From NCBI GenBank assembly GCA_016213065.1, contig JACRBV010000119.1, forward strand, positions 1 through 41,899: DNA of 41,899 bases. Reading direction: 5' to 3'. The position numbers and the translations under genes are program-made. Below are positions 8,971 to 41,899 of the stretch, one piece after another (position 1 is the first letter of the stretch; every line of letters starts with the position of its first letter). This stretch comes from Deltaproteobacteria bacterium (lineage in GTDB: Bacteria > UBA10199 > SPLOWO2-01-44-7). The notes beneath the pieces are model-generated. The model was not told the DNA's origin and made no database searches. It saw nothing but the letters and a program-made list of their open reading frames with translations.

Positions 8971-8972
8971 CA

Positions 8973-21901: not shown

Positions 21902-21903
21902 AA

Positions 21904-22069: not shown

Positions 22070-22070
22070 T

Positions 22071-26145: not shown

Positions 26146-26148
26146 AAA

Positions 26149-27225
26149 TTAGCACTCCCCCCGCACAATTTCCTGCAATTGTTTTGGTGATGGCAACTTG
26201 CCTTTCAGTTTGTCTGGAAGTTTTGATTGGAGGTGATACTCAGCAACACCAATGGGGTTGGACTTGGATTTGAGCGCAAACTCAACTTCCAAAGAGTCCT
26301 TCTCAGCGCAGAGAATAATTCCAATGGAGGGATTATCATGAAGAGTGCGTTCTTTTTCATTCAGCAGATTTAGATAAAAATCCATCTTTCCTGCAAATTC
26401 CGGCTCGAATTGCCCGACCTTCAGTTCCACGGCCACCAGCGCTTTGAGAAAGCGGTGATAAAACAGAAGATCAATGAAATATTCTTTCCGCCCAAGCACG
26501 AGGCGATGTTGCCGGCCTATAAAGCAAAAGCCATAGCCCAATTCGAGAATAAACTCCTTTAACTTCTCGATGAGTCTGTCTTCCAGTTCTCTCTCACTCA
26601 CCTCGCGATGGATGCCGAGGAACTCGAGGCTGTAGGAGCTCTTGAGTGTTTCGTCTGCCTGCTCGGCAAAGCGTTCGGGTAAAGTTGCCGGAAAGTTGTG
26701 AGTTTTCCCCTGCGAAAGAGTGCGTTCATAGGCCTCAGCCTTAATCTGATTGAGAAGGACATTGCGGCTCCAACCGAACCTCGCCGTAGCGCGAAGATAA
26801 TAAAGACGGGCAGGAGGATCTTCCACTTTATTTAGAATCAACAAATGATGGCCCCATGGGATTTCGGCAACGGCCTGTCGCCAAAATTCGGAATTATTTA
26901 TGTCTTTTTCTTCTCCTATTTTGGCGACAGCCTGTCGCCAAAATTCAGGGGAAGAGTACGAGATGAAAAAGCGTTTCATATCCCGCAAATTACGGGGCGA
27001 AAAACCGGTCACTCCGGGAAAGGTGTTGAGCAAGTCTTTTGAGAGCCGCTCAATAACCGATTCACCCCACCCGAGCTGTTTTTGTTTTTCCGTAATCGCC
27101 AAACCGATATCCCAATAAAGAAAAATTAGATCCCGATTAACCGCTCGAACAGCTGAAACACGTGCCGACTGGATGCGGAATTTTAATTGTCCAAGAAATT
27201 CATGATATGCAGTTAACTTGGTCAT
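26149..27225 (-). CDS. PDDEXK-nuclease family protein, DUF1016 / YhcG-like
   Basis: 358 aa with a YhcG-type N-terminal region (...RAVNRDLIFLYWDIGLAITEKQKQLGWGESVIERLSKDL...FSPRNLRDMKRFF...IPWGHHLLIL). The C-terminal nuclease core reads YGFCFIGRQHRLVLGRKEYFIDLLFYHRFLKALVAVELKVGQF. Confidence 0.85.
   Translation of the reverse strand: MTKLTAYHEFLGQLKFRIQSARVSAVRAVNRDLIFLYWDIGLAITEKQKQLGWGESVIERLSKDLLNTFPGVTGFSPRNLRDMKRFFISYSSPEFWRQAVAKIGEEKDINNSEFWRQAVAEIPWGHHLLILNKVEDPPARLYYLRATARFGWSRNVLLNQIKAEAYERTLSQGKTHNFPATLPERFAEQADETLKSSYSLEFLGIHREVSERELEDRLIEKLKEFILELGYGFCFIGRQHRLVLGRKEYFIDLLFYHRFLKALVAVELKVGQFEPEFAGKMDFYLNLLNEKERTLHDNPSIGIILCAEKDSLEVEFALKSKSNPIGVAEYHLQSKLPDKLKGKLPSPKQLQEIVRGEC
26918..26944. 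repeat. 27-bp perfect palindrome inside the DUF1016 gene
   Basis: ATTTTGGCGACAG C CTGTCGCCAAAAT. A degenerate second copy (GGCAACGGCCTGTCGCCAAAATTC) lies ~60 nt upstream. Together they encode the duplicated peptide EFWRQAVA. Confidence 0.8.
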
Positions 27226-27259
27226 TTGATCATAAAGAAATATCGAAGCTTCATTTTTT

Positions 27260-27997
27260 TTAAAGATTTCCCTTCTTCAGCATTCCGGCGGCTTCTTTGA
27301 TTCTGTTTTCTACACTGCCGTCCAAAATCAAACTGCCCAGCTTCAAAATAATTCCCCCCGCAAAATCCTTTTTCAACTCTTCTTTCAAGCTGAGTTTTCG
27401 GCCCGTTTTTTTCTCCAGAATATTTTTGATCTCCGTCTTGTGCGCGGAACTTAAGGGAGACCGGCTGACAATGCCTATCTCGTCAAAATCCACGGAGACT
27501 CTTCCGGCATCCATAGCCCTGATTTCTTCGATGAGTTCACAAGCCAGTTGTTCATCCAGTCCTTTTTCCATTCTTGCACCGACAAAAATACGAACGAGTT
27601 CCGCCCCAACCACCGCCGCCTTGGCTTCCACTTCCATCGCCATTCTCTGTACCGCCTTGGCCTCCAGTTTTTTAGCTCCGGAGACAATCCGGTCGCTTTC
27701 CTCTCTTGCTTTGGCGAGCATTTTTCCGCGCTCTTCTTCCAATTCTTTCTTGGCCTCCTCGCGCTGTCTGCGGACATCCTCGGTCGTCTGTTCCACTTTT
27801 CGGCGGTATTCTTCTTCGGCCTCCTCTATCTTCGTCTTCATTTCCGAGAGGCGCTTTGCATTTTCATCATCAACCAGCTTGAGCCGGTTGACGGCGCTCA
27901 AAGTATCTTTGACCATAAGGCGTCGGAGAAAAATAATGACGACGGCAAACACCAACACCTGTATAAGAAGAAAGCCTGCAATAAATTCGATTGTCAT
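27260..27997 (-). CDS. F-type ATPase b subunit fused to a delta(OSCP) C-terminal-like domain
   Basis: N-terminal TM (IAGFLLIQVLVFAVVIIFL) plus a ~100-aa charged coiled coil, which is b-like. The C-terminal ...IVSRSPLSSAHKTEIKNILEKKTGRKLSLKEELKKDFAGGIILKLGSLILDGSVENRIKE matches the delta C-terminal signature (GG..v.vG....DgSv...L). SD AAGGAG lies upstream. Confidence 0.7.
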   Translation of the reverse strand: MTIEFIAGFLLIQVLVFAVVIIFLRRLMVKDTLSAVNRLKLVDDENAKRLSEMKTKIEEAEEEYRRKVEQTTEDVRRQREEAKKELEEERGKMLAKAREESDRIVSGAKKLEAKAVQRMAMEVEAKAAVVGAELVRIFVGARMEKGLDEQLACELIEEIRAMDAGRVSVDFDEIGIVSRSPLSSAHKTEIKNILEKKTGRKLSLKEELKKDFAGGIILKLGSLILDGSVENRIKEAAGMLKKGNL

Positions 27998-28007
27998 AAG
28001 AGCTCCT

Positions 28008-28220
28008 TCACTTTCCGAATAATTGAAACAAAACCAAAAGGGCGATCACCGCAATGGCTTCCGCGAAAATCAGCGCGATAATCATCGCCATCAAAATTTT
28101 CGGGGCTGAAGAGGGATTTCTTCCAAGCGCACGGATGCTTGAATAACCGATAACGGCAATAACAGCCGAGGGGCCAAGAATCGTTACCAGCATCACCAAT
28201 ATAATGACAAAATTTCGCAC
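28008..28220 (-). CDS. atpE: F-type ATPase c subunit (proteolipid)
   Basis: 70-aa two-helix hairpin with loop RALGRNPSS and a carboxylate in helix 2 (ALIFAEAIAVIALLV). GTG start at 28220 is preceded by GGAGGAATA and overlaps the epsilon TAG by 1 nt. Confidence 0.85.
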   Translation of the reverse strand: MRNFVIILVMLVTILGPSAVIAVIGYSSIRALGRNPSSAPKILMAMIIALIFAEAIAVIALLVLFQLFGK

Positions 28221-28450
28221 TATTCCTCCACAAGCACCACCAGCCGGTTTCCGCGAAACCGCATAATCCCGCCTTTGACATTCAGATATTTTGTGCCGTC
28301 AATAACCATGCGCCCTTTTTTCAGGAGACTCACAACGGGACAATGATAAGGAAGGATTTCGAATTCCCCCGTGTCCCCCTGTAAAAAAGCGCTCTCTGCT
28401 TTCCCTTCAAATAAAACTCTCTTCGCGTTCAGTATGACGATATCAAACAC
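28220..28450 (-). CDS. atpC: F-type ATPase epsilon subunit, beta-sandwich domain only
   Basis: 76 aa. FDIVILNAKRVLFEGKAESAFLQGDTGEFEILPYHCPVVSLLKKGRMVIDG...VKGGIMRFRGNRLVVLVEE fits the epsilon N-terminal domain (...G..gilp.H.p....L..G.......v.gG...v....v.vl). GTG start overlaps the alpha stop by 8 nt. There is no C-terminal helical hairpin. Confidence 0.7.
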   Translation of the reverse strand: MFDIVILNAKRVLFEGKAESAFLQGDTGEFEILPYHCPVVSLLKKGRMVIDGTKYLNVKGGIMRFRGNRLVVLVEE

Positions 28451-29759
28451 TTTTTTTATATTCCTCGATCTGCATCTCTGACAGGCCGTCCAGATTGCCC
28501 TTCATCAGCGCGCTCAAAAAAGCGGCCTGCCTTTTCAAAGAAATGGGCGTGTTTTTGTCCTGCCTTAAAAGGGCCGTGATGGCTTCCCCCCTCTTGATCC
28601 GGCTCTCCGCCTCGGCAGACAGCCCCACTTTGAGTTTTGTCAAGCGCTGTAAATCTCGGTACCGCATGTATTCCAAACGCAGGGGAGATTTTTTCTCCTT
28701 TAATTCCTGCGGCTGGACCAGAGAGCCGATGATGGAAACCGATTGGGCAATGTCCACGGCGGGTTTGAATCCCCCTTTGAAAATATCCGCGTTCAAATAA
28801 ATTTGGCCGTCCGTCATGGAAATGAAATTGGAGGGAATAAATCCCGTCACATCCCCGTGCAGGGTATCCACGATCAGCAAAGAAGTTATGGAACCGCCGC
28901 CGTGCTCCCGATGCAGTTTTCCCGCCCGCTCCAAAAGTTGTGTGTGCAGGTAAAAAATATCCCCCGGATACGCCTCCCTGCCCGGAGGTCTTCCCAGCAA
29001 AAGAGAAAGCTGGCGGTAGCACCACGCGTGTTTCGTCATGTCATCAAAAACAACCAGACAGTCTTGGCCCTTTTGCATGAAATACTCGGCCAATGCTGTG
29101 GCGGTAAAAGGGATCAGATACTGTTCCCCGGCCGGGGAGGCCGCGGGCGCCGCGGCGATGAGGGTATAATCCAAAGCCCCGCGGGCTTTGAGAAGGCCGG
29201 CCACCTTTATTAATGAACTCATGCTCTTGCCGATACAGCAATAAATGCAGATGACGTTTTTTCCCTTCTGATTCAAAATGGCATCCACGGCGATGGTTGT
29301 CTTTCCCGTCATCCGGTCACCCACGATCATCTGCCTTTGACCCTTAGCGATGGGAACGAAGGCATCTATTATGGTTGTTCCTGTTTCAAGAAAGGAATCC
29401 GCCGGTTCGCGGTCCATCGTTTCCGGAGCCTCACACATGACGGGAAAATAATCGGCAGGCTCAATCTTTCCCTTGTCGTCACAGGGTTCTCCCAGCGCAT
29501 TCACGACCCTGCCCAAAAATTTTTCTCCGACGGGAACCTTGAAGGTCTCCGCCCGGCTGAAACAGGCGTCGCCTAAGCGGACTTTGGCTTCATTGCCCAG
29601 AATCAGCGTCAGCGTGTCCGTCTTGGTAAAGCCCATAATCATCCCGGGCACACCGCTTTCAAACGAGACAACCTGACCGTTGAGACACGAATGAAATCCC
29701 GCCACGCGCGCAATATTTTTGCAGACGGCCTTGACTTGTCCCGCTTCTTTGATTTCCAT
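28443..29759 (-). CDS. atpA: F-type ATPase alpha subunit, paralogue 1 (short, 438 aa)
   Basis: ...VPVGEKFLGRVVNALGEPCD..., P-loop GDRMTGKTTIAVDAILNQ (canonical GDRQTGKT), VICIYCCIGKS, LVVFDDMTKHAWCYRQLSLLLGRPPGREAYPGDIFYLHTQLLERAGKL, ISMTDGQIYL. ATG 29759 lies 1 nt after the stop of the upstream lipoprotein gene. Confidence 0.9.
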   Translation of the reverse strand: MEIKEAGQVKAVCKNIARVAGFHSCLNGQVVSFESGVPGMIMGFTKTDTLTLILGNEAKVRLGDACFSRAETFKVPVGEKFLGRVVNALGEPCDDKGKIEPADYFPVMCEAPETMDREPADSFLETGTTIIDAFVPIAKGQRQMIVGDRMTGKTTIAVDAILNQKGKNVICIYCCIGKSMSSLIKVAGLLKARGALDYTLIAAAPAASPAGEQYLIPFTATALAEYFMQKGQDCLVVFDDMTKHAWCYRQLSLLLGRPPGREAYPGDIFYLHTQLLERAGKLHREHGGGSITSLLIVDTLHGDVTGFIPSNFISMTDGQIYLNADIFKGGFKPAVDIAQSVSIIGSLVQPQELKEKKSPLRLEYMRYRDLQRLTKLKVGLSAEAESRIKRGEAITALLRQDKNTPISLKRQAAFLSALMKGNLDGLSEMQIEEYKKSV

Positions 29760-29760
29760 G

Positions 29761-30477
29761 TTACGGTTTTACGTTTGCAATGGCTTCTTCATTCATCTTC
29801 ACTTTTTCCTCAACAAAGGTGTCCATGATAAAACGGTTGACGGCCTCGTCTTTCAATTTTTTGTTGTATTCAAAAGATACCTGCTCCTTCACTTTTTCAA
29901 ACGGCTTTTTTTCGTATTTACCCTTGTTGGCCTCATAGTATCTTAAAAGGTCTTCCTCACGCGCTTCAATTTTTCCAAGTTTTCTTTCCAGAAGTTTTTC
30001 AGCAAGTATGCCACGCCGTGCCTGCTCCAGAAGAAAAACAATGTCTCTGTCTTTTTCTAATCCTTCTCTTTTCGCCCTTTTTGCCAGAGCAGTGCGGGCA
30101 ACATATTGGCGGATGAAATCCGTTCTCCATTCTTTGCTCGTTTCAAAATTTTCCTTAAGAAACCGGTTGAGTTTGTCCGCGGCCTGCTTTATTTCCGAGA
30201 AAGTTATCGCTTCCTTTCCGATGGTCGCAATAACTGCTTCTCCCGTCGCCGGTTTTTTCCCGGAGCAGGAGACGGGAAACAGAGAGGCAGAGAGGCAGAG
30301 AAGCAGAGAACACCATTTTTTATTCAAATGCCTATATCCTTGAGTCCCGTAAGAAAACCTTTGCTCTCTTTTGTCATCCCCGCGCAGGCGGGGATCCAGT
30401 GATTTCAATGGTTTCTGGATTCCCGCTTTCGCGGGAATGACAGAACGGGATTCAAGGATATAGGCATTTTTATTCAT
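29761..30477 (-). CDS. SurA-N/PpiD-like periplasmic chaperone-type lipoprotein, N-terminus interrupted by a MITE
   Basis: The mature part (...ATIGKEAITFSEIKQAADKLNRFLKEN...LLRYYEANKGKYEKKPFEKVKEQVSFEYNKKLKDEAVNRFIMD) resembles SurA N-terminal/PpiD chaperone domains. The lipobox LFPVSC follows (M/L)NKKWCSLLLCLSAS. Codons 4-53 of the ATG-30477 ORF (NAYILESRSVIPAKAGIQ...) are MITE plus duplicated target. An alternative TTG start lies at 30327. Confidence 0.55.
   Translation of the reverse strand: MNKNAYILESRSVIPAKAGIQKPLKSLDPRLRGDDKREQRFSYGTQGYRHLNKKWCSLLLCLSASLFPVSCSGKKPATGEAVIATIGKEAITFSEIKQAADKLNRFLKENFETSKEWRTDFIRQYVARTALAKRAKREGLEKDRDIVFLLEQARRGILAEKLLERKLGKIEAREEDLLRYYEANKGKYEKKPFEKVKEQVSFEYNKKLKDEAVNRFIMDTFVEEKVKMNEEAIANVKP
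30326..30469. mobile_element. MITE-like palindromic element, copy 2 (144 bp, opposite orientation)
   Basis: Its reverse complement aligns with copy 1 along the whole length except a ~22-nt deletion in the second hairpin. It is flanked by the direct repeat TTATTC (30320-30325 and 30470-30475). Confidence 0.85.
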
Positions 30478-30478
30478 A

Positions 30479-31030
30479 TTATTTTTTCAATGCTCCTTCC
30501 AGTTCCTGAATTTTGGTCTGTAAATCGGCTTTTTCTTTTTCCAGTTGAGCGACCAGATCACTGGTTTCCGGTTTGACATTCATTCCTTCCTTGACCGCGC
30601 GCGCATCGGCAATGCGCTGGATCTCGCCACGGAGTTCGTCCAGTTTTAAGAGCAGGGCTCTTCTCTCTTTGTTTAAATTTTCAACCATCCGGTTGGCCTC
30701 GGCCAAATCTTTTTGGACATCCTGCCTATTCACATTTTTTTTAAGCGCCGCGATAGAGGCCTGATTGACTTCCGCATCGCTCTGAAGATTTCGGACAGCC
30801 ATGAGGAGCCGGTCCCTCTCCGCCTGAAGGGCCTTGGCGAAATCCTCTTTTTTTTGCAGATCCAGTTCCATAATGCGATTTTTAACCAAAAGATCCGCCG
30901 TCCCTTTAAAAGGACCGATGGTAACCGCAAACGCTATTGCCACCGTCAAGCCTGCCGCATAAACCCCCAGCAAAATCACGGCCGTTTTTGCCGCATTGAT
31001 TTTACCGAACAGATTTTTGAAGAAATTCAT
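30479..31030 (-). CDS. Single-pass membrane coiled-coil protein, unknown function
   Basis: ORF trimmed to ATG 31030, which has a strong SD (AAGGAGGTGTTTATG). Sequence is MNFFKNLFGKINAAKTAVILLGVYAAGLTVAIAFAVTI (TM) followed by ~140 aa of heptad-like K/E/L/Q coiled coil. The architecture resembles ATPase b or PilN/GspB-type stalk proteins. Confidence 0.5.
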   Translation of the reverse strand: MNFFKNLFGKINAAKTAVILLGVYAAGLTVAIAFAVTIGPFKGTADLLVKNRIMELDLQKKEDFAKALQAERDRLLMAVRNLQSDAEVNQASIAALKKNVNRQDVQKDLAEANRMVENLNKERRALLLKLDELRGEIQRIADARAVKEGMNVKPETSDLVAQLEKEKADLQTKIQELEGALKK

Positions 31031-31048
31031 AAACACCTCCTTGCAGAA

Positions 31049-31123
31049 GGACCATGGACCATGGACCAACTGCTTTTTCTGGTTTTTAGTCCATGGTCTA
31101 TGGTCCATAGTCCATGGTCTTGT
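31049..31123. repeat. Family G heptad hairpin, cargo-free, intergenic
   Basis: Left arm GGACCAT GGACCAT GGACCAA, then the loop, then right arm GTCCATG GTCTATG GTCCATA GTCCATG GTCTTGT. Positions 31049-31066 pair with 31089-31106, 18 bp with one G-U. The loop begins with AAC after GGACC and ends GGTTTTTA before GTCC, as in the 4490-4599 copy. Confidence 0.85.
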
Positions 31124-31130
31124 ACTTAAA

Positions 31131-31502
31131 TTAGTATCCCATAAACAACGCCGGATTGTTACGATACAAATCTCGGCGCCGGTTTTTGGACGGATCCTTA
31201 ATCATTTCTACAATCAGCGTGGCCTCGTCGGCATACAGCGTATCCGGATAACGGGACAGGATTTTTTCGCAATACTCCAGCGATGTCACATAGTCGCTGG
31301 TCATCTCTAGTTTCTGCGCCAGATCCAGCCACTGTTTGGCCTGATAGTGATCTTTTTTGCTGAGATTCGCCGTTGATTCGGGAGGCCTCGATGTCAGAGC
31401 GCTTGGCGGACGCTGTTTTACCCCGCAGGCAGACGCCAGAAAAAAAAGAGCTATAGCAAGAGCAAAACAAAATGTCCGTTTTTGTGTATGCCAGTTTGTC
31501 AT
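31131..31502 (-). CDS. Small TPR-like lipoprotein downstream of the secretin (possible pilotin/BamD-like)
   Basis: MTNWHTQKRTFCFALAIALFFLASAC carries the lipobox LASAC. It is followed by ...HYQAKQWLDLAQKLEMTSDYVTSLEYCEKILSRYPDTLYADEATLIV, which is TPR-like. ATG 31502 lies inside a MITE core. The track ORF extends to ATG 31607 through the repeat (FWIPAFAGMT). Confidence 0.5.
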   Translation of the reverse strand: MTNWHTQKRTFCFALAIALFFLASACGVKQRPPSALTSRPPESTANLSKKDHYQAKQWLDLAQKLEMTSDYVTSLEYCEKILSRYPDTLYADEATLIVEMIKDPSKNRRRDLYRNNPALFMGY

Positions 31503-31575
31503 TCCCGCGAAGGCGGGAATCCAGAAAAGCTGAAAAAGACTGGATCCCTGCCTTCGCAGGGATGACAAAACGGGG
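31491..31575. mobile_element. MITE-family core element, copy 3 (short form lacking the outer TIRs)
   Basis: CCAGTTTGTCATTCCCGCGAAGGCGGGAATCCAGAAAAGCTGAAAAAGACTGGATCCCTGCCTTCGCAGGGATGACAAAACGGGG. It has the same two hairpins as copies 1 and 2. Confidence 0.75.
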
Positions 31576-31594
31576 TTTTTAGAAAGATTTTTTT

Positions 31595-33586
31595 TTAATC
31601 GTCCCATCTGCGCCCCTTTGGTTTTTTTCTTTTCTCCGGCGTTTTCGTTTTTCCCTTTTGTTCCACAATATCTTGTTCCCGAATACCTTGTGCTTGGACA
31701 ATGGGCGGTAGAGGAGCAATGCCCGGCAGGGTTTCATCACCGCTCATCAAGTGCGGAGTCAAAAGAACCACCAGTTCTTGTTTGGACATTTTGTCATTGG
31801 TGGAGCGAAAGAGATTTCCGGCCACGGGAATCCGTGAAAGCCCCGGAATACCTGAACGTGTTTTATTCCTCGAAAGTTGCATCAAGCCGCCGATCAGCAC
31901 CGTGGCACCATCTTTCACCATCACCACCGTATCGGCATTGGTTGTTTGCACAATGGGAATCTGGTCCCCCTGAGAGGTTGTCAGAAACCGCGATACATTG
32001 CTGATCTCGGGACGGATTTTCATCGTGATGAAACCATCATCGTTGATATGCGGCGTGACAAAAAGAGATACCCCCACATCAATAAAAGTAACATTTTGCG
32101 CCGTGGTGGTAGTGGACTGGCTCTGTGTAATGCTGGAGGTCGTATAGGCCTCCTTGGTCCCCACCATTATTTTGGCCTCCTGATCGTTGACCGCGGAAAT
32201 ATGGGGCGTGGACAAAATGCGGGTGTCACCGAAGGTCTCCAAAAATTTAAGAATTGCTCCCGAGTTGGAATAAGAGGAGGTAGTCACCCCTTTTGAATCC
32301 GTTGTCTTGGTCTCGGCAATGGATCCCGCAATAATCTGTCCGAAAGAGCTCAAGCCGGAGGGAAAAGTCTGCTGGAGTGTTGTTCCAAACACCTTTGCCC
32401 ATTCCACGCCGCTTTGATACTGATCGCCGAGCGTAATCTGAATGATCTTGGCCTCGATCATGACCTCCTGCGTTTTGGTGTCAAACGCGGTAACGACCTT
32501 TTTGATTTCTACCAGATTGAGCGGCAAATCCGAAACGACCAGTTTGTTGGTGCGTTCATCCACGTAAACCTTGCCAATTTCTTTGGTGAGAACGGGTGTA
32601 ATTTTTTCCGCCATTGTTTTCGCCTTCGCGTATTGAAGACTGAAAACCTCTGTTTGCGTCACGGGCATGCGGACCACGGAGGGCAGTTCCTCGTGACGGA
32701 TGACCTGTTCCATTTCTATTATCTTTTGTGGTGTATCCATCAGGACAACCGTTCCCGTGGAATCGTCATAGACAATGCGCCCCACATCGCTCTTCACATT
32801 TTCTAGCATGGCACCGATATTTTTGGCCGAGGCATACTGCAAACGGATGATTTTCGTCTCCCGCTGATCGTAAAACTGTTTTCCATACAGGGCCTTGTAT
32901 TCCTCTTCCGTCATCACCTGCATGATATTTTCCTTTAAATTGTAGGCCAGACGATGGGTGGAAAGAATAATATCCAGCGCGTCTCGAACGGTGACATTAT
33001 TCAAAAGGAGGCTCACGGTCCCCGTGATGTTTTTTCCTCCGGCGATGTTCAGGTTGCCCTTGATGGCAAGAAATTTGAGGACGTCCAGAATGTCCATGTC
33101 GCGCAGATCAAGGGATATTTTGGTGTCCAGCGTGGGGATTTCACCTTCCGCGGAAGGAGGAACCAGTTCTCCCCCTCCCATCACGGCCGGTTTTTTTGCC
33201 GTTTTTTCTTCCTCCGTTTTGGGTTTGTCCGCACCGCCGGAAGCCGGACCGGAAGGAGTTTGGACAGGAGGAGTTTGGGAAGCGGGAGTTTGAGAAGAGG
33301 GCTCCTGTTGCGCCGGAGGATTTTGCACGGCAGTTCCCCCAATGGGAGAAGAAGAGGTTGATGAAGTCCCTTGAACTCCCGTGCCGCCGATGGGCGATGG
33401 AGAAGGCTGTGCCGGCGCGGGTGCCGGTACCGGTGTCGTTGTCGTTGTTGTTGTCGTCGTTGTCGGCGCCGGCGTTGGTGTGGGCGCCAGTATCGTTTTG
33501 GGTGTTTCCGCGGATCTTATATCCTCCGCGACAGACGCAAAACACGCCAAAGAAACCACGGCGAAAAAAAACAATATCTTTTTCAC
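31595..33586 (-). CDS. Secretin, PilQ/GspD family
   Basis: Signal peptide MKKILFFFAVVSLACFASVA, with a GTG start at 33586 and AAGGAG 6 nt upstream. It has a ~110-aa Thr/Pro/Ser linker, an N0/STN-like domain (ISLDLRDMDILDVLKFLAIKGNLNIAGGKNITGTVSLLLNNVTVRDALDIIL) and secretin_N repeats. The C-terminal secretin domain reads ILSTPHISAVNDQEAKIMVG...TVVMVKDGATVLIGGLMQ...GIPGLSRIPVAGNLFR...ELVVLLTPHL. Confidence 0.9.
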   Translation of the reverse strand: MKKILFFFAVVSLACFASVAEDIRSAETPKTILAPTPTPAPTTTTTTTTTTPVPAPAPAQPSPSPIGGTGVQGTSSTSSSPIGGTAVQNPPAQQEPSSQTPASQTPPVQTPSGPASGGADKPKTEEEKTAKKPAVMGGGELVPPSAEGEIPTLDTKISLDLRDMDILDVLKFLAIKGNLNIAGGKNITGTVSLLLNNVTVRDALDIILSTHRLAYNLKENIMQVMTEEEYKALYGKQFYDQRETKIIRLQYASAKNIGAMLENVKSDVGRIVYDDSTGTVVLMDTPQKIIEMEQVIRHEELPSVVRMPVTQTEVFSLQYAKAKTMAEKITPVLTKEIGKVYVDERTNKLVVSDLPLNLVEIKKVVTAFDTKTQEVMIEAKIIQITLGDQYQSGVEWAKVFGTTLQQTFPSGLSSFGQIIAGSIAETKTTDSKGVTTSSYSNSGAILKFLETFGDTRILSTPHISAVNDQEAKIMVGTKEAYTTSSITQSQSTTTTAQNVTFIDVGVSLFVTPHINDDGFITMKIRPEISNVSRFLTTSQGDQIPIVQTTNADTVVMVKDGATVLIGGLMQLSRNKTRSGIPGLSRIPVAGNLFRSTNDKMSKQELVVLLTPHLMSGDETLPGIAPLPPIVQAQGIREQDIVEQKGKTKTPEKRKKPKGRRWDD

Positions 33587-34308
33587 ATCAACTCCTTGTT
33601 TTTGCCGCCATACTCCACCAAAACTTTGTCTTTGGAAATCTCCTTGATCTTGATTCCCTTAAACTGCTGATCTTTTTTTAAAAAATAAGTCCTGCCGTCG
33701 GCTTTGTCCCGAATCATCGCTTCGGGATATTCCCCCCACGCAATTCCCACCAGTTGCAAATCGCCTAAAATTTTATCCGCTCCGGCGGCCGATACGGTCG
33801 GTATGTTCTCCTCTTTTTTGGGTAATTCCCCCGGCCGGAAAAGACTTCTCTTCCCGGCATCTTTTAAATACATTTCAACGGATTCGAGAAGGGCGATGTT
33901 GCGTCCGCCCGATGGCGTATTGTGTTTGGCCACCCTTGCATAAACATCCTTGATATCCGATTTCAGCGCAAAAACATTGACCACAGAGGCAATCACAACA
34001 AGACCGATAACAATGGCCAGTCCCTTGTTGACCACGCCGAGATCAAAACACGGACGGGACAATCCCTCTTTAAATTGAAAAAACCAGTCCTGAGCTTTGC
34101 CAACGGTTCCTTTCAGGGCCGCTATCTTCAGCCACGATTTTTTTTCCGTCTCCGGTTCACCGCCGCTGTCGATCACTTGCAAAAGTTTTTCCTCCGCCGT
34201 CAATTTTTCCTGCTTCGAAAATTCTTCCACCGAAGTTTTTTCCTGCGGATTTTCTCCGCTGACAGCGTCAAACATTCCCTGAACAGGATTTTTTTTATCT
34301 TCCTCCAT
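33583..34308 (-). CDS. GspC/PilP-like inner-membrane secretin-coupling protein
   Basis: Cytoplasmic acidic N-terminus and a TM (GLAIVIGLVVIASVVNVFAL). The C-terminal beta-rich domain LQLVGIAWGEYPEAMIRDKADGRTYFLKKDQQFKGIKIKEISKDKVLVEYGGKNKEL resembles the HR domain of GspC/PilP. The stop overlaps the secretin GTG as GTGA. The track start at 34314 is a TTG; ATG 34308 is used. Confidence 0.55.
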   Translation of the reverse strand: MEEDKKNPVQGMFDAVSGENPQEKTSVEEFSKQEKLTAEEKLLQVIDSGGEPETEKKSWLKIAALKGTVGKAQDWFFQFKEGLSRPCFDLGVVNKGLAIVIGLVVIASVVNVFALKSDIKDVYARVAKHNTPSGGRNIALLESVEMYLKDAGKRSLFRPGELPKKEENIPTVSAAGADKILGDLQLVGIAWGEYPEAMIRDKADGRTYFLKKDQQFKGIKIKEISKDKVLVEYGGKNKELM

Positions 34309-35164
34309 CTTCAACTGGCTCCTGTTCTTTGGACGCGTTAAGGATGCGCTCTTCCTGAAGCACCATTTCCTGAACGATTTTGCGCGTCACCTCTTCTTTG
34401 TTTTCCATGACCAATTTTTCCAGAACATTGTGGCAAAGGAGCGTTACCTGTCTCGGATAACCCTGCGTATGTCGATGGATCTCTTCCATGGCTTCAGAAG
34501 CAAAAAGCGGTTTCTTTGCGTTGTAGCCCGCCTGCAGGAGGCGAAAATTAATCAGCTCCGTCATCTCTTCCAGCCCAAGGGGATTGAGCATGTATTTCAG
34601 ACTGATCCGGTCCCACAAGTTTTTGAGACGCGAAATTTTCGGCAAAAGCTCCAATTGCGACATGAGAACCAGCTGAAGGATTTTGTGCTCGTTGGTTTCG
34701 TAATTGAGCAGGGTGCGCAAAATTTCAAGAGAGGTCTTACTCAATTTCTGGGCCTCATCAATTAAAAGGACAATCGTCTTTTTTTCCTCCACCCCTCTTT
34801 GAAAAAGATTTTTTTCCAGAATATCGAAGTAATGAACGGTCGAGATGGGCTTTTGTGGAAGCTCTATATGAAAAGATTCCATGAGTTTTTCTAAAAATTC
34901 CTCCTCGGATTTGAAAACCGGATTGAGAAGGATGTGAAAATCGCAAGACGGCTCCTTGGAAAGCATTTGGTAGAGCCTCCGGCTCAGTGTGGTCTTTCCG
35001 GTGCCCACGTCTCCAAGGATGAGACTCAAACCCCGCTTGAGGCGGAGAGCGATTCGCAGGCGATACAGCGCCGCCTTGTGATCCCTCGCTTCATAAAAAA
35101 ACGCAGGATCAGGACTTGTGGAAAACGGCTCGTTCGCAAGCCCCAATACCTTATAATAACTCAT
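34295..35164 (-). CDS. ExeA/GspA/MshM-like AAA ATPase
   Basis: MSYYKVLGLANEPFSTSPDPAFFYEARDHKAALYRLRIALRLKRGLSLILGDVGTGKTTLSRRL... with Walker B IVLLIDEAQKL is the typical ExeA/MshM N-terminal ATPase. There is no peptidoglycan-binding domain. ATG 35164 overlaps the alpha-2 stop as ATGA. Confidence 0.8.
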   Translation of the reverse strand: MSYYKVLGLANEPFSTSPDPAFFYEARDHKAALYRLRIALRLKRGLSLILGDVGTGKTTLSRRLYQMLSKEPSCDFHILLNPVFKSEEEFLEKLMESFHIELPQKPISTVHYFDILEKNLFQRGVEEKKTIVLLIDEAQKLSKTSLEILRTLLNYETNEHKILQLVLMSQLELLPKISRLKNLWDRISLKYMLNPLGLEEMTELINFRLLQAGYNAKKPLFASEAMEEIHRHTQGYPRQVTLLCHNVLEKLVMENKEEVTRKIVQEMVLQEERILNASKEQEPVEDGGR

Positions 35165-36588
35165 GCCTGAATTCCCTCCAACGCCCCGCGTATCTCGGAC
35201 GTCATCTTTTTTTTCATGGCAATCTCTTTTAAAAGTCCCGGCTTTTGCTTTTCAACAACCTGCCTGACATTTCGTTTGAACAGGGATACCTGATCCGGTG
35301 TCAGGGCATTTAATTTCCCATGACGATGCAGGTAAAGTAGCACGACCTGCTCCTCCATGGCAACGGGGTTTGCCTTGTCCTGTTTCAAAAGTTCCGTAAG
35401 AATCCTTCCTGTTTTTAATTTGTCTCCCATCTCACCGGAATCTCCGGCCTTGATTTTTGTCAGGCGCTCCAGTTCCCTATACTGTACGTATTCCAGACGG
35501 AGCATGGCGGAGAGTTCCCGAACGGCCGGCCACTGCACCTTGTTTCCCACGCGTGACACGGAGAGCCCAAGGTCCACGGCCGGTTTAAAACCGTGACTAA
35601 AAAGTTCCGCGTTCAAATAAATTTGTCCGTCCGTCATCGAAATAAGATTGGAGGGAATATAGCCGGTGACATCACCCTGAAGGGTGTCCACGACCGGCAA
35701 AAAAGTCATCGAACCGCCGCCCCTTTCGGACCCTAGTTTTCCGGCGCGTTCAATCATCTGGGAATGGAGATAAAAAATATCCCCCGGATAGGCATCGCGC
35801 CCCGGAAATCGTCCCAAAAGAAGGGAGAGCTGGCGGTAAATCCACGCGTGTTTGGTGAAATCATCAAAGGCCACCAAAACATCCCGACCCTTGTTCATGA
35901 AATGCTCTCCCATGCCAGCGGCCGCGTAGGGAGCCAGATACTGCTGGCCCGGAGGACTGGAAGCCGTTGCGGAAACCACAAGAGTGTATTCCATGGCGCC
36001 ATGCCGTTCGAACAAACGCATCACTCGGGCCAATTGAGCCTTTGTCTTTCCGATACAGCAATAGATGCAAAGGACATTTTTTCCTTTTTGATTAAGGATG
36101 ATGTCCGTCACGATAGTGGTTTTGCCGGTCATCCGGTCTCCGATGATGAGCTGGCGCTGTCCCTTGCCCAAGGGGATCATCGTATCGAGAATTTTGATGC
36201 CGGTTTCCAAGGGCTCATCGAGAGGCACACGCTCCAAAACGGACGGGGCCTCAGCAAAAAGAGGACGGAATTCCGTGTTTGAGTCGCTTCTATAATTAAG
36301 CGCTTCCTCGCTTTCTCCCAGCGCATTAACCACCCGGCCGATCAGCCAATCCCCGGTCGGCACTTCAAACGATTCCAGTCTTGTATATGCCTTGTCCCCC
36401 GCCTTGATTGTCCCTTTTTCCTTGAGCAAAAGGACAAGGACATCCTCTTTGTCAAATCCCATGATCATGCCAAGGGAATTGTCCATGAAATAAATTTTCT
36501 GACCGTTCATGCAGGAAGAAAGGCCCCTGATCTTGACGATGGATTTTTCCACCGCCCTCACCTCGCCGTATTCTTTGAAGTGTAACAT
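35161..36588 (-). CDS. atpA: F-type ATPase alpha subunit, paralogue 2 (475 aa)
   Basis: ...VPTGDWLIGRVVNALGES..., P-loop GDRMTGKTTIVTDIILNQ, VLCIYCCIGKT, LVAFDDFTKHAWIYRQLSLLLGRFPGRDAYPGDIFYLHSQMIERAGKL, ISMTDGQIYL, GLSVSRVG. By eye it is roughly half or more identical to paralogue 1. SD GAGGAAAAG lies before ATG 36588. Confidence 0.9.
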   Translation of the reverse strand: MLHFKEYGEVRAVEKSIVKIRGLSSCMNGQKIYFMDNSLGMIMGFDKEDVLVLLLKEKGTIKAGDKAYTRLESFEVPTGDWLIGRVVNALGESEEALNYRSDSNTEFRPLFAEAPSVLERVPLDEPLETGIKILDTMIPLGKGQRQLIIGDRMTGKTTIVTDIILNQKGKNVLCIYCCIGKTKAQLARVMRLFERHGAMEYTLVVSATASSPPGQQYLAPYAAAGMGEHFMNKGRDVLVAFDDFTKHAWIYRQLSLLLGRFPGRDAYPGDIFYLHSQMIERAGKLGSERGGGSMTFLPVVDTLQGDVTGYIPSNLISMTDGQIYLNAELFSHGFKPAVDLGLSVSRVGNKVQWPAVRELSAMLRLEYVQYRELERLTKIKAGDSGEMGDKLKTGRILTELLKQDKANPVAMEEQVVLLYLHRHGKLNALTPDQVSLFKRNVRQVVEKQKPGLLKEIAMKKKMTSEIRGALEGIQA

Positions 36589-37994: not shown

Positions 37995-40900
37995 TTATTT
38001 TATTTCTTCCACTTTGACGCTTTTTTCTGCGCGGACTTGTGCCCACCAGAGGACGAAGAAGAGAAAACTGATGACTCCAAGGAAACCGACGATGACAAAA
38101 ATAATCCGCCATGTTGTGCTTGTTGCGGGTGCCCCGCCGGCAAAGATGGATTCGGCAACCATTTTAAGGGCCTCGGAGCCTTTGGGACCGCCCGGCCCCT
38201 CTCCGGATCCGCCGCCCACACCAACGGATCCACCGGCACTCCCTCCCGCACCACCCCTGCCCGCCGCAACATAGGCAACCTTTCCCAACCCCAAATCCTT
38301 GGCCTGCACGCCGGGCGCCACGGTAATCAACCCCGCCATTTTTTCCAGCTTGTCGATCCTGTTTTTGATTGTCTCCAAAAAGGAAAGGCTTTGATGAAAA
38401 ATTTCCACATGTTCCCCAAGCCCTGATTCTTTTCCCTGATTTTGTCTCAGACCCGAAACGCCCTCCACAATTTCTTTGCTCAAAAGGTTGGCCTCTTCGC
38501 TGAATGTCGTTCCATCAAGGGCTTTGGCAAGGGCTTTGGCGCGTTCCTGAATTCCCAAGAGTACGCCTTCCGGCAGTCTCCAAATGTCCCGAAGAATCAC
38601 TTCAAAAATCTTGATGTCCGCCGGTTTCAAATCCACCGCGTCTTTGTAAAGATAAAGTCTGCCCTGTTCCAGATCGTGAAGGACTTCCAGAAGGCCTCTG
38701 TCCAGAACGTCTTTTTCGAGCACTTCTTTGGGAAGATAGTGTTTGACGGCGATTCTTGTGGCTTCCGTCTGAGAGGGGTTTTTGACTTCCACTTTTAAAG
38801 TAACCTTCTCGACTTCAGTCGTGCCGCTACCTTCCTGACCTTCCGAAGTTTCACCCAAACCGAGCGTGGCACCCTCCACCCAACGTCCCATGTCCCCTTC
38901 CGCACCTTCACCCGCGTTTTTTCCGGGAAAACCCGAAGGTCCGCCGGGGCCGCCCGGTCCCTCTCCGGAACCACCACCTGCCCCGCCGCCTTTCTTGAAT
39001 CCCATCCCCTCACCGGCCAGTTTTTCAAGGAAGGCCGTATCTTTTTTGATCTCTTGGAAGACAAGAAGATTTTTGCGGTGAACCTCGATGTGTTTGGCAG
39101 GGCCCACGTCTTCATCCTGACTTGTGAGGATATTATCCAAACGGGTCTGAATGGTTTCGCCCAGTTTCTTGGCCGCCTCAGAATATTTCCAATTGTCCTT
39201 CAGCAGTTTAACCAGCTCCGACGCGTAACCTTTCTGGAAGGTGATTTCCCCATCAGGAATCCGCCAGATATCCTGTAGCCGGACCTGCAAAACTTTTTCT
39301 TCCGCGGGTTTTAATGTTGTTTCGCCATAGGCTTCGTAAATTCCCTTTTCAGCATTGAAGCCCACTTTCAAATCACCCGCATCCATGACGGATTCCCTCG
39401 TCGCCTCTTTCGGCAGAGGGATTCTAACCGGCACCGTAAAGCTTTCCTCCTTGGAAGGATTCACAATGAGGACTTTGAGGAGCACGGAACCCGATTCGTA
39501 CCAAGTTTTGACCACCGGCGCTTCGAAACCCTTCTGCTGTTTGGCCATCGTTGTTAAGACATCCAACATGGCCTTCACCCGCTCAATTTGATCCTGCAAG
39601 GATTTAACGTCCGCGGCCGTGGCCGGTTGAGCCAATTTTTCCATCCCGGGATGACCTTGGGACGCGGCCATCTCACCCACTTTGGCCATCGCCTCGGTAA
39701 GTCCCGTCTTCAGAGAATCCGTCGAAACACCGCTGGCAATTTTCGTAACATCCGATTGAACTTTTCCTAATTTATCGCTTAAGGAAGTCAGGGCCGACTT
39801 TGTCGCGTCGCTCGACGAGCCAGTTGTTGTCAGTGCCGCCTTGGCTTCTTCCGCGGCTGATGCGGCCCGTGAGGCCGTCGAACTCGCGTTGGAGGCATAA
39901 GTTGACGCGTTGGTGGCATCTTTCCCGATTGTGGTGAGACTGCCGGAAACACCGGCGATTTTTCCAAATACGCTGGAAGAGGAAGAAGAATCTGAGGCGC
40001 CACCCAAAAGCGATGTTACCGAGGAAAGCGCCGTGTTGATAGTGCCGGTATCCACGCTGAGACCGCTGTTGATTTTTGTGAGAATGCTGTCAATGTTTGT
40101 TTTTGCCGAAGACAGATTTGTTGAGAGCGTACTTGCGGCGGTGTTTACCGTGCCAACGGTCGTTGTCAAACTATCCAGACTGGTATCAAGTGTATTGACG
40201 TTGGTGTTGACGGAGAGCATGCCTCGAAGCAGAGTGTCCAGTTTGTAATTTAGACTGCCTACGACATCACCGCTGACCCCTCCCACCTCCGTACCCACTG
40301 TGGTAACTTTTGTGCCGAGTTCGGTACCCACTGTGGTAACTTTCGTCCCAAGTTCGGTACCCATTGTGCCGAGCTCGCTTCTAACCGTGGTCACTTTTGT
40401 GCCCACTTGATCCACGTAATCCTTGAGAAGACGCAAATCCTCGTACATGGAACCACCGCCGGCCGCGCCTTCCTCATAGCCGAACTTTTCTTGCAATTCG
40501 GTGACTTTATCGTAGGCACCCATCGTCTGTGTGAACAATTCATCCGCAGTCTTCGTTCCCCACTTGTTCTTCACATCCTTCACCAATCCAAAAACGGTAT
40601 TGCTGTAGGCGGGATCTTCGGGAGATCCCATCATGCCCCTAAGATTCGCCAGATCGGCCGTTGCCATGCCTACCTCCGACCAGTCAATCATGTCGGTCTT
40701 CATTTTGATGCCGGTGATGCTGTTCCAGTCAATCGTACCAGTCTTCGTCTTAATGGTTGCAACATCCGCCCAGTTGATGGGATCCGTTTTCTGCTGGATG
40801 GTACCGGCTTTGGTCACAATATCCGTCACGTCCGCCCAGTTAATACTCTGCGTCTTCGTCTTGATGGCCGCGATGTTGCCGGTGCCGATCTCGTTGACCA

Positions 40901-41899
40901 AGCCGGTTACATTTGTCCAGTCAATCGTATCTGTTTTTGTTTTGATCCCCGTGATCTGGTCCCAGTTAATGGTATCTGTTTTTGTTTTAATCGCCGAAAC
41001 ATTCGTCCAGTCAATGGGGTCTGTCTTGGCTTGAATCGTGTTGGTGGTTGTTACAAGGCCCGTCACGTCCGCCCAGTTGATACTCGCGGTCTTCGTGTTG
41101 ATCGCAGAAATGTTGCCGGTGCCGATTTCCGTAATGAGTGTGGCAACATTATTTTTCGCCGTCGTTACATCCGTCCAGTTGATCGTATCTGTTTTTGCCT
41201 TGACGCCTGTCACGTCCGCCCAGTTGATCGTATCGGTTTTCGTTTTAATCGCGGCCACATTCGTCCAGTCTATCGTGTCAGTCTTTGCTTTAATCGCACC
41301 GGAAGTTGTCACCAGTCCCGTCACGTCGGCCCACGCGATGGTGTCCGTCTTTGTCTTAATCGCCGCAATGTCTCCGGTTTGTGTGAGAACCGTCGCAACA
41401 TCATTCTTGGCCGTCGTTACATCCGTCCAGTTAATTGTATCGGTCTTTGCTTTGACGCCTGTTACATCGGCCCATGCAATCGTATCGGTCTTCGTTTTGA
41501 TGCCGGTCACATTTGTCCAGTCTATCGTGTCGGTCTTTGCCTGAATTGCTCCCGTCGCTGTGACAATTCCCGTCACGTCCGCCCACGCGATGGTGTCGGT
41601 CTTTGTTTTGACTGCCGCAATGTCTCCGGTTTGAGTGAGAATCGTCGCAACATTATTCTTGGCTGTCGTCACATCCGTCCAGTTAATTGTGTCCGTCTTG
41701 GTTTTGATGCCGCTTACATCCGCCCATGCAATCGTATCGGTCTTTGTTTTGATGCCGGTCACATTTGTCCAATCAATCGTATCCGTCTTCGCCTGAATCG
41801 CTCCCGCGCTTGTCACAAGGCCCGTCACATCCGCCCAGTTGATACTCGCAGTCTTCGTGTTGATCGCGGCAATGTTGCCTGTGCCGATTTCCGTAATCA
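37995..41899 (-). CDS. Giant repeat-rich surface protein, C-terminal 1300 aa (5' end beyond the right edge), C-terminal TM anchor
   Basis: The frame stays open to 41899; sequence upstream of the track Met continues the repeats (...ITEIGTGNIAAINTKTASINWADVTG). It contains 15-aa KTDTI-W repeats, S/T/A-rich low complexity, two ~170-190-aa duplicated modules and Gly-rich linkers. A C-terminal TM follows (WRIIFVIVGFLGVISFLFFVLWW), then a short basic tail. Confidence 0.8.
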   Translation of the reverse strand, partial: ITEIGTGNIAAINTKTASINWADVTGLVTSAGAIQAKTDTIDWTNVTGIKTKTDTIAWADVSGIKTKTDTINWTDVTTAKNNVATILTQTGDIAAVKTKTDTIAWADVTGIVTATGAIQAKTDTIDWTNVTGIKTKTDTIAWADVTGVKAKTDTINWTDVTTAKNDVATVLTQTGDIAAIKTKTDTIAWADVTGLVTTSGAIKAKTDTIDWTNVAAIKTKTDTINWADVTGVKAKTDTINWTDVTTAKNNVATLITEIGTGNISAINTKTASINWADVTGLVTTTNTIQAKTDPIDWTNVSAIKTKTDTINWDQITGIKTKTDTIDWTNVTGLVNEIGTGNIAAIKTKTQSINWADVTDIVTKAGTIQQKTDPINWADVATIKTKTGTIDWNSITGIKMKTDMIDWSEVGMATADLANLRGMMGSPEDPAYSNTVFGLVKDVKNKWGTKTADELFTQTMGAYDKVTELQEKFGYEEGAAGGGSMYEDLRLLKDYVDQVGTKVTTVRSELGTMGTELGTKVTTVGTELGTKVTTVGTEVGGVSGDVVGSLNYKLDTLLRGMLSVNTNVNTLDTSLDSLTTTVGTVNTAASTLSTNLSSAKTNIDSILTKINSGLSVDTGTINTALSSVTSLLGGASDSSSSSSVFGKIAGVSGSLTTIGKDATNASTYASNASSTASRAASAAEEAKAALTTTGSSSDATKSALTSLSDKLGKVQSDVTKIASGVSTDSLKTGLTEAMAKVGEMAASQGHPGMEKLAQPATAADVKSLQDQIERVKAMLDVLTTMAKQQKGFEAPVVKTWYESGSVLLKVLIVNPSKEESFTVPVRIPLPKEATRESVMDAGDLKVGFNAEKGIYEAYGETTLKPAEEKVLQVRLQDIWRIPDGEITFQKGYASELVKLLKDNWKYSEAAKKLGETIQTRLDNILTSQDEDVGPAKHIEVHRKNLLVFQEIKKDTAFLEKLAGEGMGFKKGGGAGGGSGEGPGGPGGPSGFPGKNAGEGAEGDMGRWVEGATLGLGETSEGQEGSGTTEVEKVTLKVEVKNPSQTEATRIAVKHYLPKEVLEKDVLDRGLLEVLHDLEQGRLYLYKDAVDLKPADIKIFEVILRDIWRLPEGVLLGIQERAKALAKALDGTTFSEEANLLSKEIVEGVSGLRQNQGKESGLGEHVEIFHQSLSFLETIKNRIDKLEKMAGLITVAPGVQAKDLGLGKVAYVAAGRGGAGGSAGGSVGVGGGSGEGPGGPKGSEALKMVAESIFAGGAPATSTTWRIIFVIVGFLGVISFLFFVLWWAQVRAEKSVKVEEIK

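Follow-up and report, generated by a model that had tools for sequence, protein, structure and literature searches.

The stretch of DNA analyzed here (the window) is the 41,899-nucleotide (nt) contig JACRBV010000119.1 of GenBank assembly GCA_016213065.1, and its subject is an operon for an F1-like ATPase with two paralogous alpha-subunit genes, one of which has lost the catalytic arginine finger. From ~41.8 to 16.4 kb, the minus strand forms a single compact array in which all genes are co-oriented. We call the two genes alpha-1 and alpha-2 and the clades to which they belong alphaB and alphaA, respectively, so that the order in the window is alphaA-[secretin module]-alphaB-epsilon-c-b/delta-gamma-beta, followed by pilus genes, with GspE starting 85 nt past beta (Table 1). 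Pfam matches characterize the adjoining machine as similar to type II secretion systems (T2SS) and type IVa pili (T4aP) (T2SSE 2.6e-132, T2SSF 1.8e-53, PilM_2 and PilN, T2SSM/PilO, and Secretin), and no PilT-like retraction ATPase was found in this locus. The named homologues of both alphas are proteins from metagenome-assembled genomes (MAGs) of Candidatus Omnitrophota, and the window belongs to the genome of a groundwater member of that phylum; the taxonomy labels of the MAGs are the submitters' own, and some of the related loci carry the label Lentisphaerae, Victivallales, or Planctomycetota. The window sequence is present in groundwater metagenome runs, and in one of them (X1) Logan contigs cover 26090–30397 and 33681–35789, including both junctions between the alphas and the secretin module, with 0 differences. 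Because these independent contigs span both junctions, an assembly chimera is ruled out as the source of the gene arrangement.

A preliminary description of the window had reported two full alpha-type genes of 438 and 475 amino acids (aa), roughly half or more identical, accompanied by only one beta, gamma, epsilon, and c. This was borne out: both open reading frames (ORFs) lie on the minus strand at exactly the coordinates given there, BLASTP aligned them with 235 identities in 440 positions (53%; 71% positives; E = 6e-180), and Pfam and NCBIfam detected each of the four other subunits once. Both alphas exceeded the Pfam cutoffs for ATP-synt_ab (PF00006; E ~1e-70) and ATP-synt_ab_C (PF00306), and the best NCBIfam models for both were those of the F0F1 alpha subunit. 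Against TIGR00962 (atpA), alpha-2 scored 510.8 bits, above the cutoff of 484.45, and alpha-1 fell just below it (475.7) because of its truncated C-terminus. The P-loop GDRMTGKT (from residue 147 in alpha-1 and 150 in alpha-2) and the motif CIYCCIGK (from 171 and 174), described as shared by the pair (the P-loop as unusual), are indeed present in both, but they are not peculiar to it because they are family-wide in this Omnitrophota alpha clade, in which GDRMTGKT was found in 116 of 229 relatives. The shorter C-terminus of alpha-1 was also seen again: in the pairwise alignment alpha-1 stops 34 residues earlier than alpha-2, and it is ~40 aa short of a canonical alpha. This shortening is local to its sublineage (418–438 aa), alphaB being 484–528 aa long elsewhere. 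Aligned with the models or PDB structures, the two window alphas start only at position ~23–32, so the N-terminal segment of ~22 residues that binds delta/OSCP is absent, and its partner, the N-terminal domain of delta, is likewise missing from the b-delta fusion.

The difference that sets the two alphas apart lies in the active site. In a gap-free alignment to solved F1 structures, alpha-1 has SVSIIG opposite the canonical SVSRVG, placing Ile343 (codon 28731–28733, ATC) at the arginine-finger site (alphaR365 of PS3, alphaR373 of the bovine enzyme), whereas alpha-2 retains the finger as Arg346 (codon 35551–35553). This is a property of the whole alphaB clade, in which 43 of 43 sequences have no finger Arg (Ile in 41, Thr in 2), whereas the residue is kept in 187 of 187 alphaA or single alphas and in 17 of 17 canonical alphas. 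Among the best 150 alpha-like representatives from a library of 1.84 billion proteins, 132 had the finger Arg, and the cases with Ile were alphaB only. When other residues that discriminate between alphaA and alphaB were considered, only 3 of 480 aligned columns were conserved in at least 80% of each clade yet different between the two, and the finger column alone was absolute (100% vs 100%; Ile in alphaB, Arg in alphaA and canonical alphas). The P-loop is invariant in the alphaB alignment, and with the 145 columns conserved to 90% or more in canonical alphas as reference, alphaB keeps 100 and alphaA 102. Because the loss of the finger is fixed across the clade and 100 of these 145 positions are retained, alphaB looks like a specialization within the F1 head and not the product of decay or a protein with a job elsewhere. 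The arginine finger of alpha is critical for F1 catalysis, its removal abolishing or drastically slowing hydrolysis, and Ala mutants lose catalytic power and about half of the torque (reviewed in PMC5380711); the functional effect of Arg to Ile assumed below is extrapolated from model F1 enzymes.

Table 1. Genes of the minus-strand array in the window.
Feature	Coordinates	Strand	Evidence or remark
1277-aa repeat protein	37995..41828	-	Nearly all related loci encode a counterpart of its C-terminal ~500 aa just before the ATPase genes
Schlafen/AlbA_2 + HATPase_c_4 protein, 459 aa	36596..37975	-	Pfam
alpha-2, alphaA-type F1-like alpha subunit, 475 aa	35161..36588	-	Pfam, NCBIfam, trees (all-Arg clade)
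ExeA-like AAA_22 ATPase, 289 aa	34295..35164	-	Pfam AAA_22, E = 5e-19
GspC/PilP-like protein, 243 aa	33583..34314	-	Weak Pfam T2SSC match, E = 5e-4, below cutoff
Outer-membrane secretin, 663 aa	31595..33586	-	Pfam Secretin 2.8e-48, Secretin_N 1.3e-20
Three small genes: 158 aa, 209 aa (coiled coil), 238 aa (SurA_N-like)	29761..31607	-	Pfam SurA_N_3 1.7e-5
alpha-1, alphaB-type alpha paralogue, 438 aa	28443..29759	-	PDB alignment, clade membership, pN/pS
epsilon, 76 aa, beta-sandwich (N-terminal) domain only	28220..28450	-	Pfam ATP-synt_DE_N 7.6e-14
c subunit, 70 aa, carboxylate present (FAEA)	28008..28220	-	Pfam ATP-synt_C 1.2e-7
b-delta fusion, 245 aa: N-terminal transmembrane segment, coiled coil, delta/OSCP C-terminal domain only	27260..27997	-	Pfam OSCP, NCBIfam
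YhcG/DUF1016 PDDEXK nuclease	26149..27225	-	Pfam; PADLOC PDC-S02, 8e-131
gamma, 288 aa	25279..26145	-	Pfam ATP-synt 5.7e-27
beta, 465 aa	23877..25274	-	TIGR01039 (atpD) score 559 vs cutoff 463
T2SS/T4aP-like inner-membrane and pilus genes: GspE (MshEN domain), GspF, three pseudopilins, GspK, PilM-PilN fusion, PilO/GspM	16451..23792	-	Pfam

To place the two alphas among their relatives, loci were mapped with the window proteins on the contigs of the best matches, in 80 genome loci, and in 12 metagenome loci. The best matches of alpha-1 and alpha-2 were different protein sets from the same contigs. Three gene orders were recognized in addition to that of the window. In type I, a single Arg-bearing alpha lies in the order upstream protein, epsilon, c, b-delta, alpha, gamma, beta, GspE, and so on; this type was found in 12 of the first 22 loci mapped. 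Type IIa has the order c, b-delta, alphaA, alphaB, gamma, beta, and type IIb the order upstream protein, alphaA, alphaB, epsilon, c, b-delta, gamma, beta, which is the window order without the secretin block. Arg-bearing alphaA lies immediately upstream of Ile- or Thr-bearing alphaB, adjacent or overlapping, in at least 18 other Omnitrophota loci (L001, L004, L005, L011, L014, L019, L020, L088–L092, L095, L096, and L099–L102), and outside the sublineage of the window alphaB always stands between alphaA and gamma or between alphaA and epsilon. Split alphas were seen only in the window and in its relatives L006 and L087 (75–77% identity). The L087 contig (alpha-2 75% identical) has the order alpha-2, ExeA-like, GspC-like, secretin, so the ExeA-like orthologue and the GspC-like gene after alpha-2 are conserved there, and L006 (alpha-1 77% identical) has SurA-like, alpha-1, epsilon, c, b-delta, gamma, beta, GspE. 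In L088, at 61–64% identity, the alphas are still adjacent.

The trees agree with these maps. In a neighbour-joining tree of 230 alphas, 43 Arg-less sequences (alpha-1 and every downstream copy) are set apart from 187 Arg-bearing sequences (alpha-2 and every upstream copy). When the tree was rooted with 17 canonical alphas, including two respiratory-type alphas of Omnitrophota, the pilus-linked alpha family was monophyletic in 200 of 200 bootstraps, the alphaB clade had 84% support, and the IIa/IIb sub-branching of alphaB mirrored that of alphaA. We are therefore highly confident that alphaA and alphaB are an old pair, ancestrally in tandem, and that the secretin block was inserted later. Because the ancestral state is the tandem, the bracketing of the secretin by the two alphas is a late rearrangement that was neither cause nor product of the duplication. 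The junctions of this insertion are seamless: the start of the ExeA-like gene overlaps the stop of alpha-2 (ATGA), and 1 nt separates the stop of the SurA-like gene from the start of alpha-1.

These data correct a tempting but wrong story. The preliminary description had likened the arrangement to a duplication that captured or flanks the secretin module; this was not upheld, since the paralogues are adjacent in at least 18 loci and each groups with its own orthologues. Its account of the intervening 5.4 kb as exactly the outer-membrane half of a secretion machine stands for the ExeA-like ATPase and the secretin and, on a weak Pfam match, for the T2SSC-like protein, and the block holds three further small proteins. 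As for the comparison with relatives that it had proposed, loci with one alpha and loci with two both exist, but the secretin block lies between the alphas only in the sublineage of the window. No second atp operon was found to which alpha-2 might belong, a scenario that the description had set against its own reading.

It had also allowed that one copy might be a degrading pseudogene with lost interface residues. Either decay of alpha-1 as a pseudogene copy or a recent local duplication with capture of the secretin module would explain why alpha-1 has both a short C-terminus and a lost catalytic-interface residue. However, the truncation and the intact reading frame are shared by relatives of alpha-1 at 76–78% identity, and the proportions of nonsynonymous (pN) and synonymous (pS) differences between alpha-1 and its L006 orthologue were 0.14 and 0.70, against 0.14 and 0.64 for alpha-2 and 0.12 and 0.68 for beta; synonymous divergence is saturated in these comparisons, and only the contrast between pN and pS is meaningful. 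alpha-1 is under purifying selection, the same as alpha-2 and beta. The finger is thus lost in alpha-1 as that scenario supposed, yet a pseudogene is ruled out by the pN/pS values together with the clade-wide conservation, and a recent duplication around the secretin module is ruled out by the gene-order maps and trees, with their orthologous alphaA and alphaB clades and ancestral tandem. We assign hardly any probability to either version.

The other subunits of the ATPase bear on what such a head might do. The beta subunit is catalytically intact by its motifs (P-loop GGAALGKS and the catalytic-Glu motif GERIREG). The b-delta fusion matches Pfam OSCP over model positions 104–168 of 172, the C-terminal part of delta, and NCBIfam alt_F1F0_F0_B (TIGR03321) over 8–240 of 246 (E = 1.6e-13, below cutoff). 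There is one beta and one gamma per locus, and the ATPase genes are adjacent or overlapping in relatives. For the a subunit (atpB), we built a hidden Markov model (HMM) from 36 a subunits of canonical operons among the fetched loci. The model matched 50 canonical loci, ~2 kb upstream of alpha and including a respiratory-type operon of Omnitrophota (L065), and had no match in the window or in the 22 pilus-linked loci L001–L022 with 10-kb flanks on each side. In 4 of 18 pilus-linked loci (L009, L010, L016, and L020), Q, I, G, or M stands in place of the ion-binding Glu of c, and the carboxylate is kept in 14 of 18 (FAEA in the window, and 13 relatives); the RNPS loop and the remainder of c are conserved even where the Glu is lost.

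The enzyme might still be an ordinary ion-coupled F1Fo whose a subunit is encoded elsewhere, with its proximity to the pilus genes a coincidence or a matter of co-regulation and alphaB a regulatory isoform. The presence of c, b-delta, epsilon, and gamma and the carboxylate kept in the window and 13 loci fit this explanation, as does the fact that the alphas score nearer canonical atpA than the Mycoplasma F1-like models. Against it, atpB is absent within 10 kb in 22 of 22 loci, whereas canonical operons, including the Omnitrophota one, always have atpB beside c; the c carboxylate is lost in 4 of 18 loci; the same pilus-gene order follows beta in relatives, and the linkage to GspE/GspF is conserved across the phylum (PMC10066038); and a V/A-type ATPase is reported for 70–99% of one Omnitrophota class (10.64898/2026.06.07.730766). 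We rate this explanation as distinctly improbable. Because no a-subunit gene was found and the c carboxylate is dispensable in some relatives, an ATP-driven mechanical or energizing module is more likely than an ion-coupled ATP synthase.

Textbooks present the F1 head as a rotary enzyme with three-fold symmetry, assembled from a single kind of alpha and a single kind of beta. In the present case, alphaA and alphaB with the single beta and gamma would form one F1-like head, in which a beta catalytic site facing alphaB, having no arginine finger, should hydrolyze ATP far more slowly. Such a head would be intrinsically asymmetric because of this finger-less interface, and the built-in asymmetry may be tied to the single b-delta stalk. 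The head would sit on the c-ring and the b-delta stalk, and the gamma-epsilon-c rotor, uncoupled from ion flow, would act mechanically or as an energizing module on the pilus or secretion apparatus. We consider it fairly probable that alphaA and alphaB build one asymmetric F1-like head that serves as an ATP-driven mechanical module for this apparatus. For co-assembly of both alphas in one head taken by itself, the gene linkage and conservation suggest an even to slightly better chance. The mixed alpha-1/alpha-2/beta hexamer that the preliminary description had raised as a possibility is made more plausible by the conserved loss of the finger. By analogy, we propose a role like that of FliI-FliH-FliJ in type III systems or of the Mycoplasma F1-like motors invoked by Seymour et al. 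More tentatively, and with less than even confidence, an asymmetric alphaA/alphaB/beta ring with one or two of three interfaces finger-less, on a c-ring without an a subunit, could be a stepping or indexing motor or a clamp, driven by ATP, that acts mechanically both on the T4P/T2SS-like machine and on the conserved, tail-anchored periplasmic protein encoded upstream. If true, the stepping-motor interpretation would add a functional class to the motors derived from F-type ATPases, and the head would be the first of the F1 type to be built with two alpha paralogues.

Several points weigh against a single asymmetric head of this kind. The stoichiometry and co-assembly of alphaA and alphaB are inferred from gene linkage and conservation, and only DNA metagenome runs, no RNA runs, were found to contain the window sequence. 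We know of no asymmetric F1 head of this kind, and two paralogues cannot fill three alpha positions symmetrically. Furthermore, alphaB is not essential to the machine, because 12 of the first 22 loci use a single Arg-bearing alpha. Ion coupling through an a subunit encoded elsewhere also keeps some standing because the atpB search was local (10 kb on each side) and the carboxylate is kept in 14 of 18 loci. Finally, all trees are neighbour-joining trees, which do not settle the deep branching of the single-alpha and two-alpha lineages.

The symmetry problem would be avoided if the two alphas formed alternative heads, a separate alphaA3-beta3 and an alphaB3-beta3, the latter being an ATP-binding and barely hydrolyzing state for braking, sensing, or storage that competes for gamma, the c-ring, or the stalk. 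The retention of the P-loop and canonical core by alphaB is consistent with this, and an all-alphaB head would have no finger at any site. However, at least 18 loci have the two genes next to each other or overlapping within a single operon, which points to joint rather than alternative expression; no regulatory element separating the two alphas was seen; and a head without any finger is expected to have almost no activity (PMC5380711). Alternative heads are therefore in our view unlikely. It is very unlikely, in turn, that alphaB works outside an F1 head, say by serving the pilus platform or the secretin module as a nucleotide-binding adaptor. In the window it is separated from alphaA and stands beside the outer-membrane module, and the missing residue matters only within an alpha/beta interface. 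Elsewhere, however, alphaB is always wedged between alphaA and gamma or epsilon, and its score of 100 against 102 of the 145 invariant positions would be unexpected if contacts with beta and gamma were dispensable.

If the single asymmetric head is correct, alphaB, essentially an alpha minus its arginine finger and under purifying selection in many Omnitrophota lineages, would be a natural symmetry-breaking experiment. The case would be comparable to the engineered hybrid F1 motors of single-molecule work and to paralogue specialization in other ring ATPases. Taken together, the missing a-subunit gene and a c carboxylate that some relatives do without make the idea of a mechanical accessory of the pilus or secretion machine directly testable with five to seven proteins.

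The architecture of an ATPase within a pilus operon is itself already known. In every Omnitrophota class, a "symbiotic" non-respiratory F-type ATPase was described beside type-4a pilus clusters, with its alpha outside the respiratory clade and placed with the Mycoplasma type 2/3 ATPases, which were proposed as an analogue (Seymour et al., 2023, Nat Microbiol, PMC10066038). The window is a locus of this sort: its matches are to Omnitrophota, its alphas are distinct and fall outside the respiratory clade, its ATPase genes lie <10 kb from a type-4 pilus cluster and adjoin GspE/GspF/pilin/PilMNO, and giant ORFs are nearby. It departs from the published placement in that, as noted above, its alphas score nearer the canonical atpA models than the Mycoplasma F1-like ones. 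Neither the main text of PMC10066038 nor its available supplements speak of a second alpha paralogue, of a lost arginine finger, or of a missing subunit a. A preprint on complete Omnitrophota genomes (10.64898/2026.06.07.730766) reported that alpha and beta are common and gamma is rarely recognized, and that V/A-type ATPases are widespread in the class Gorgyraeia, the range of 70–99% for one class given above excluding one small order.

The nearest parallel found in the literature is xATPA of microalgal plastids, a divergent second alpha that occurs beside a normal alpha and binds F1 subunits in vitro (bioRxiv 10.64898/2026.07.08.737214); nothing equivalent to a two-alpha F1 head or a finger-less alpha was found. 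However, the gene for xATPA lies apart from those of the ATP synthase, and the protein cannot bind ATP for lack of the site and apparently plays no part in ATP synthase function, whereas alphaB keeps its P-loop, lies inside the operon, and differs mainly at the finger residue. The conserved alphaA/alphaB pair, the fixed loss of the finger in alphaB, and the systematic lack of an a-subunit gene thus appear to be new.

By curated model cutoffs, the window proteins are F-type alpha and beta, and we compared them with the known kinds of F1-type system. With the canonical F1Fo (atpIBEFHAGDC) they share homologous alpha, beta, gamma, epsilon, c, and b/delta, an intact beta site, and an alpha-2 over the TIGR00962 cutoff. 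In contrast to it, the window has two alphas, one of them finger-less, no a-subunit gene, and ATPase genes that share one operon with the pilus/secretion genes; b and delta form a fusion, the N-terminal domain of delta and the N-terminal ~22 residues of alpha are missing, and epsilon has no C-terminal helices. The Mycoplasma type 2/3 systems (M. mobile MMOB1660/1670; MSC_0618/0619) resemble it as F1 homologues in a non-bioenergetic role, in surface motility or host interaction. Their clusters have one alpha-like gene and are not known to contain c or b subunits, and membership of the window in them is rejected by the scores: the alphas reach 384–411 against a cutoff of 600 for MMOB1660 and 289–301 against 520 for MSC_0619, and beta reaches 408 against 850 and 387 against 570. 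The b of the window resembles that of the N-ATPase (atpDCQRBEFAG) over its full length, but the gene order differs, AtpQ/AtpR and an a subunit are lacking, and the alphas (455–491 vs 750.5) and beta (500 vs 752) fall short of the TIGR03324/TIGR03305 cutoffs. In FliI-FliH-FliJ (SctN-L-O), the ATPase is related to F1, the stalk resembles b/delta, and the shaft resembles gamma, and the complex serves a secretion machine in place of ion-coupled ATP synthesis; the likeness to the window ATPase may lie in the mode of action, by analogy only. FliI/SctN is a homohexamer with a finger on every subunit and no c-ring, and the window proteins scored 160–190 bits against its cutoffs of 380–620.

Two genes within the array are or may be insertions. 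The YhcG/DUF1016 nuclease gene between b-delta and gamma, inside the ATPase operon, matches the PADLOC candidate defence family PDC-S02 and is absent in the closest relative, L006, and in a related strain in runs X2/X3, in which a contig joins 26152 to 27259; it is an insertion and not part of the machine. The Schlafen/AlbA_2 gene, which lies between the conserved upstream protein and alpha-2, encodes an AbiEi-like C-terminal helix-turn-helix and has a weak PADLOC match to models associated with prokaryotic Argonautes (pAgo); it is probably an insertion, because the gene-order maps showed no homologue in any related locus fetched.

The upstream protein, in contrast, is found in almost every related locus, with one or two copies of a ~160-aa module and a C-terminal transmembrane helix that has the motif TTWRIIF. 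It exists either by itself, at 280–480 aa and then with a signal peptide, or as the C-terminal end of giant proteins longer than 2000 aa; in the window it corresponds to 37995–39520 (-), the C-terminal ~500 aa of the 1277-aa ORF, with two modules, and further examples are at 1677–3110 in L001 and 7053–8432 in L011, among others. An AlphaFold model of the module shows a 7-strand beta-sandwich and a three-helix bundle, twice, with a predicted local distance difference test (pLDDT) score of ~80 in the domains. The module had no Pfam match, its model had no significant fold match in the PDB, and a word-indexed homologue search with the domain gave 3 matches only. The protein may be a periplasmic partner of the ATPase/pilus machine.

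Some relatives carry additional genes in this region. A set resembling a diversity-generating retroelement, consisting of a reverse transcriptase, bAvd, and a target-like protein with an FGE-sulfatase domain, is located between epsilon and c in L001 (3509–7500), L002, L003, and L090 (5944–7434). In the two-alpha relative L089 (6625–8496 and 15036–17267), a GGDEF protein precedes alphaA and GspE has a PilZ domain; together with the MshEN domain of GspE in the window, this hints at cyclic di-GMP control of the whole module.

Elsewhere in the window, a separate Tad/Flp pilus locus at 594–12160 (-) was judged from ORF translations to encode a CpaF-like ATPase (619 aa), TadB/C-like proteins, a CpaC-type secretin (504 aa), and CpaB-like, TadE/G-like, and Flp-like proteins. 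Two ORFs in it (7050–7430 and 11384–11851) resemble, by eye from their translations, small 23S-rRNA-IVP genes, a family that Pfam identifies in the relatives L001 and L005. A gap of lower GC separates the Tad locus from the T2SS-like one, and in it a gene for a 439-aa ATPase-like protein at 12335–13654 (+) matches the PADLOC candidate defence family PDC-S01 (E = 3e-106).

Two kinds of short repeats were also observed. Palindromes resembling repetitive extragenic palindromic (REP) elements (GTCATYCCCGCG..GGCGGGRATCCAG) occur at 30373–30445 and 31492–31528, with contig depths in the thousands for each of the three groundwater runs. The N-termini called for two ORFs of the secretin block, of 238 and 158 aa, run through these palindromes and include their translation (IPAKAGIQ.. 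and IPAFAGMTN), so that the true starts of the two genes are probably downstream. Short GGACCATGG/CCATGGTCC repeats are found at several gene starts or ends (4497, 31049–31064, 3953, 4562, 11450, and 11848), where they read as peptides like "GPWTMDHG" at the called N- or C-termini of unrelated ORFs, and may be another dispersed repeat or a start-site artefact.

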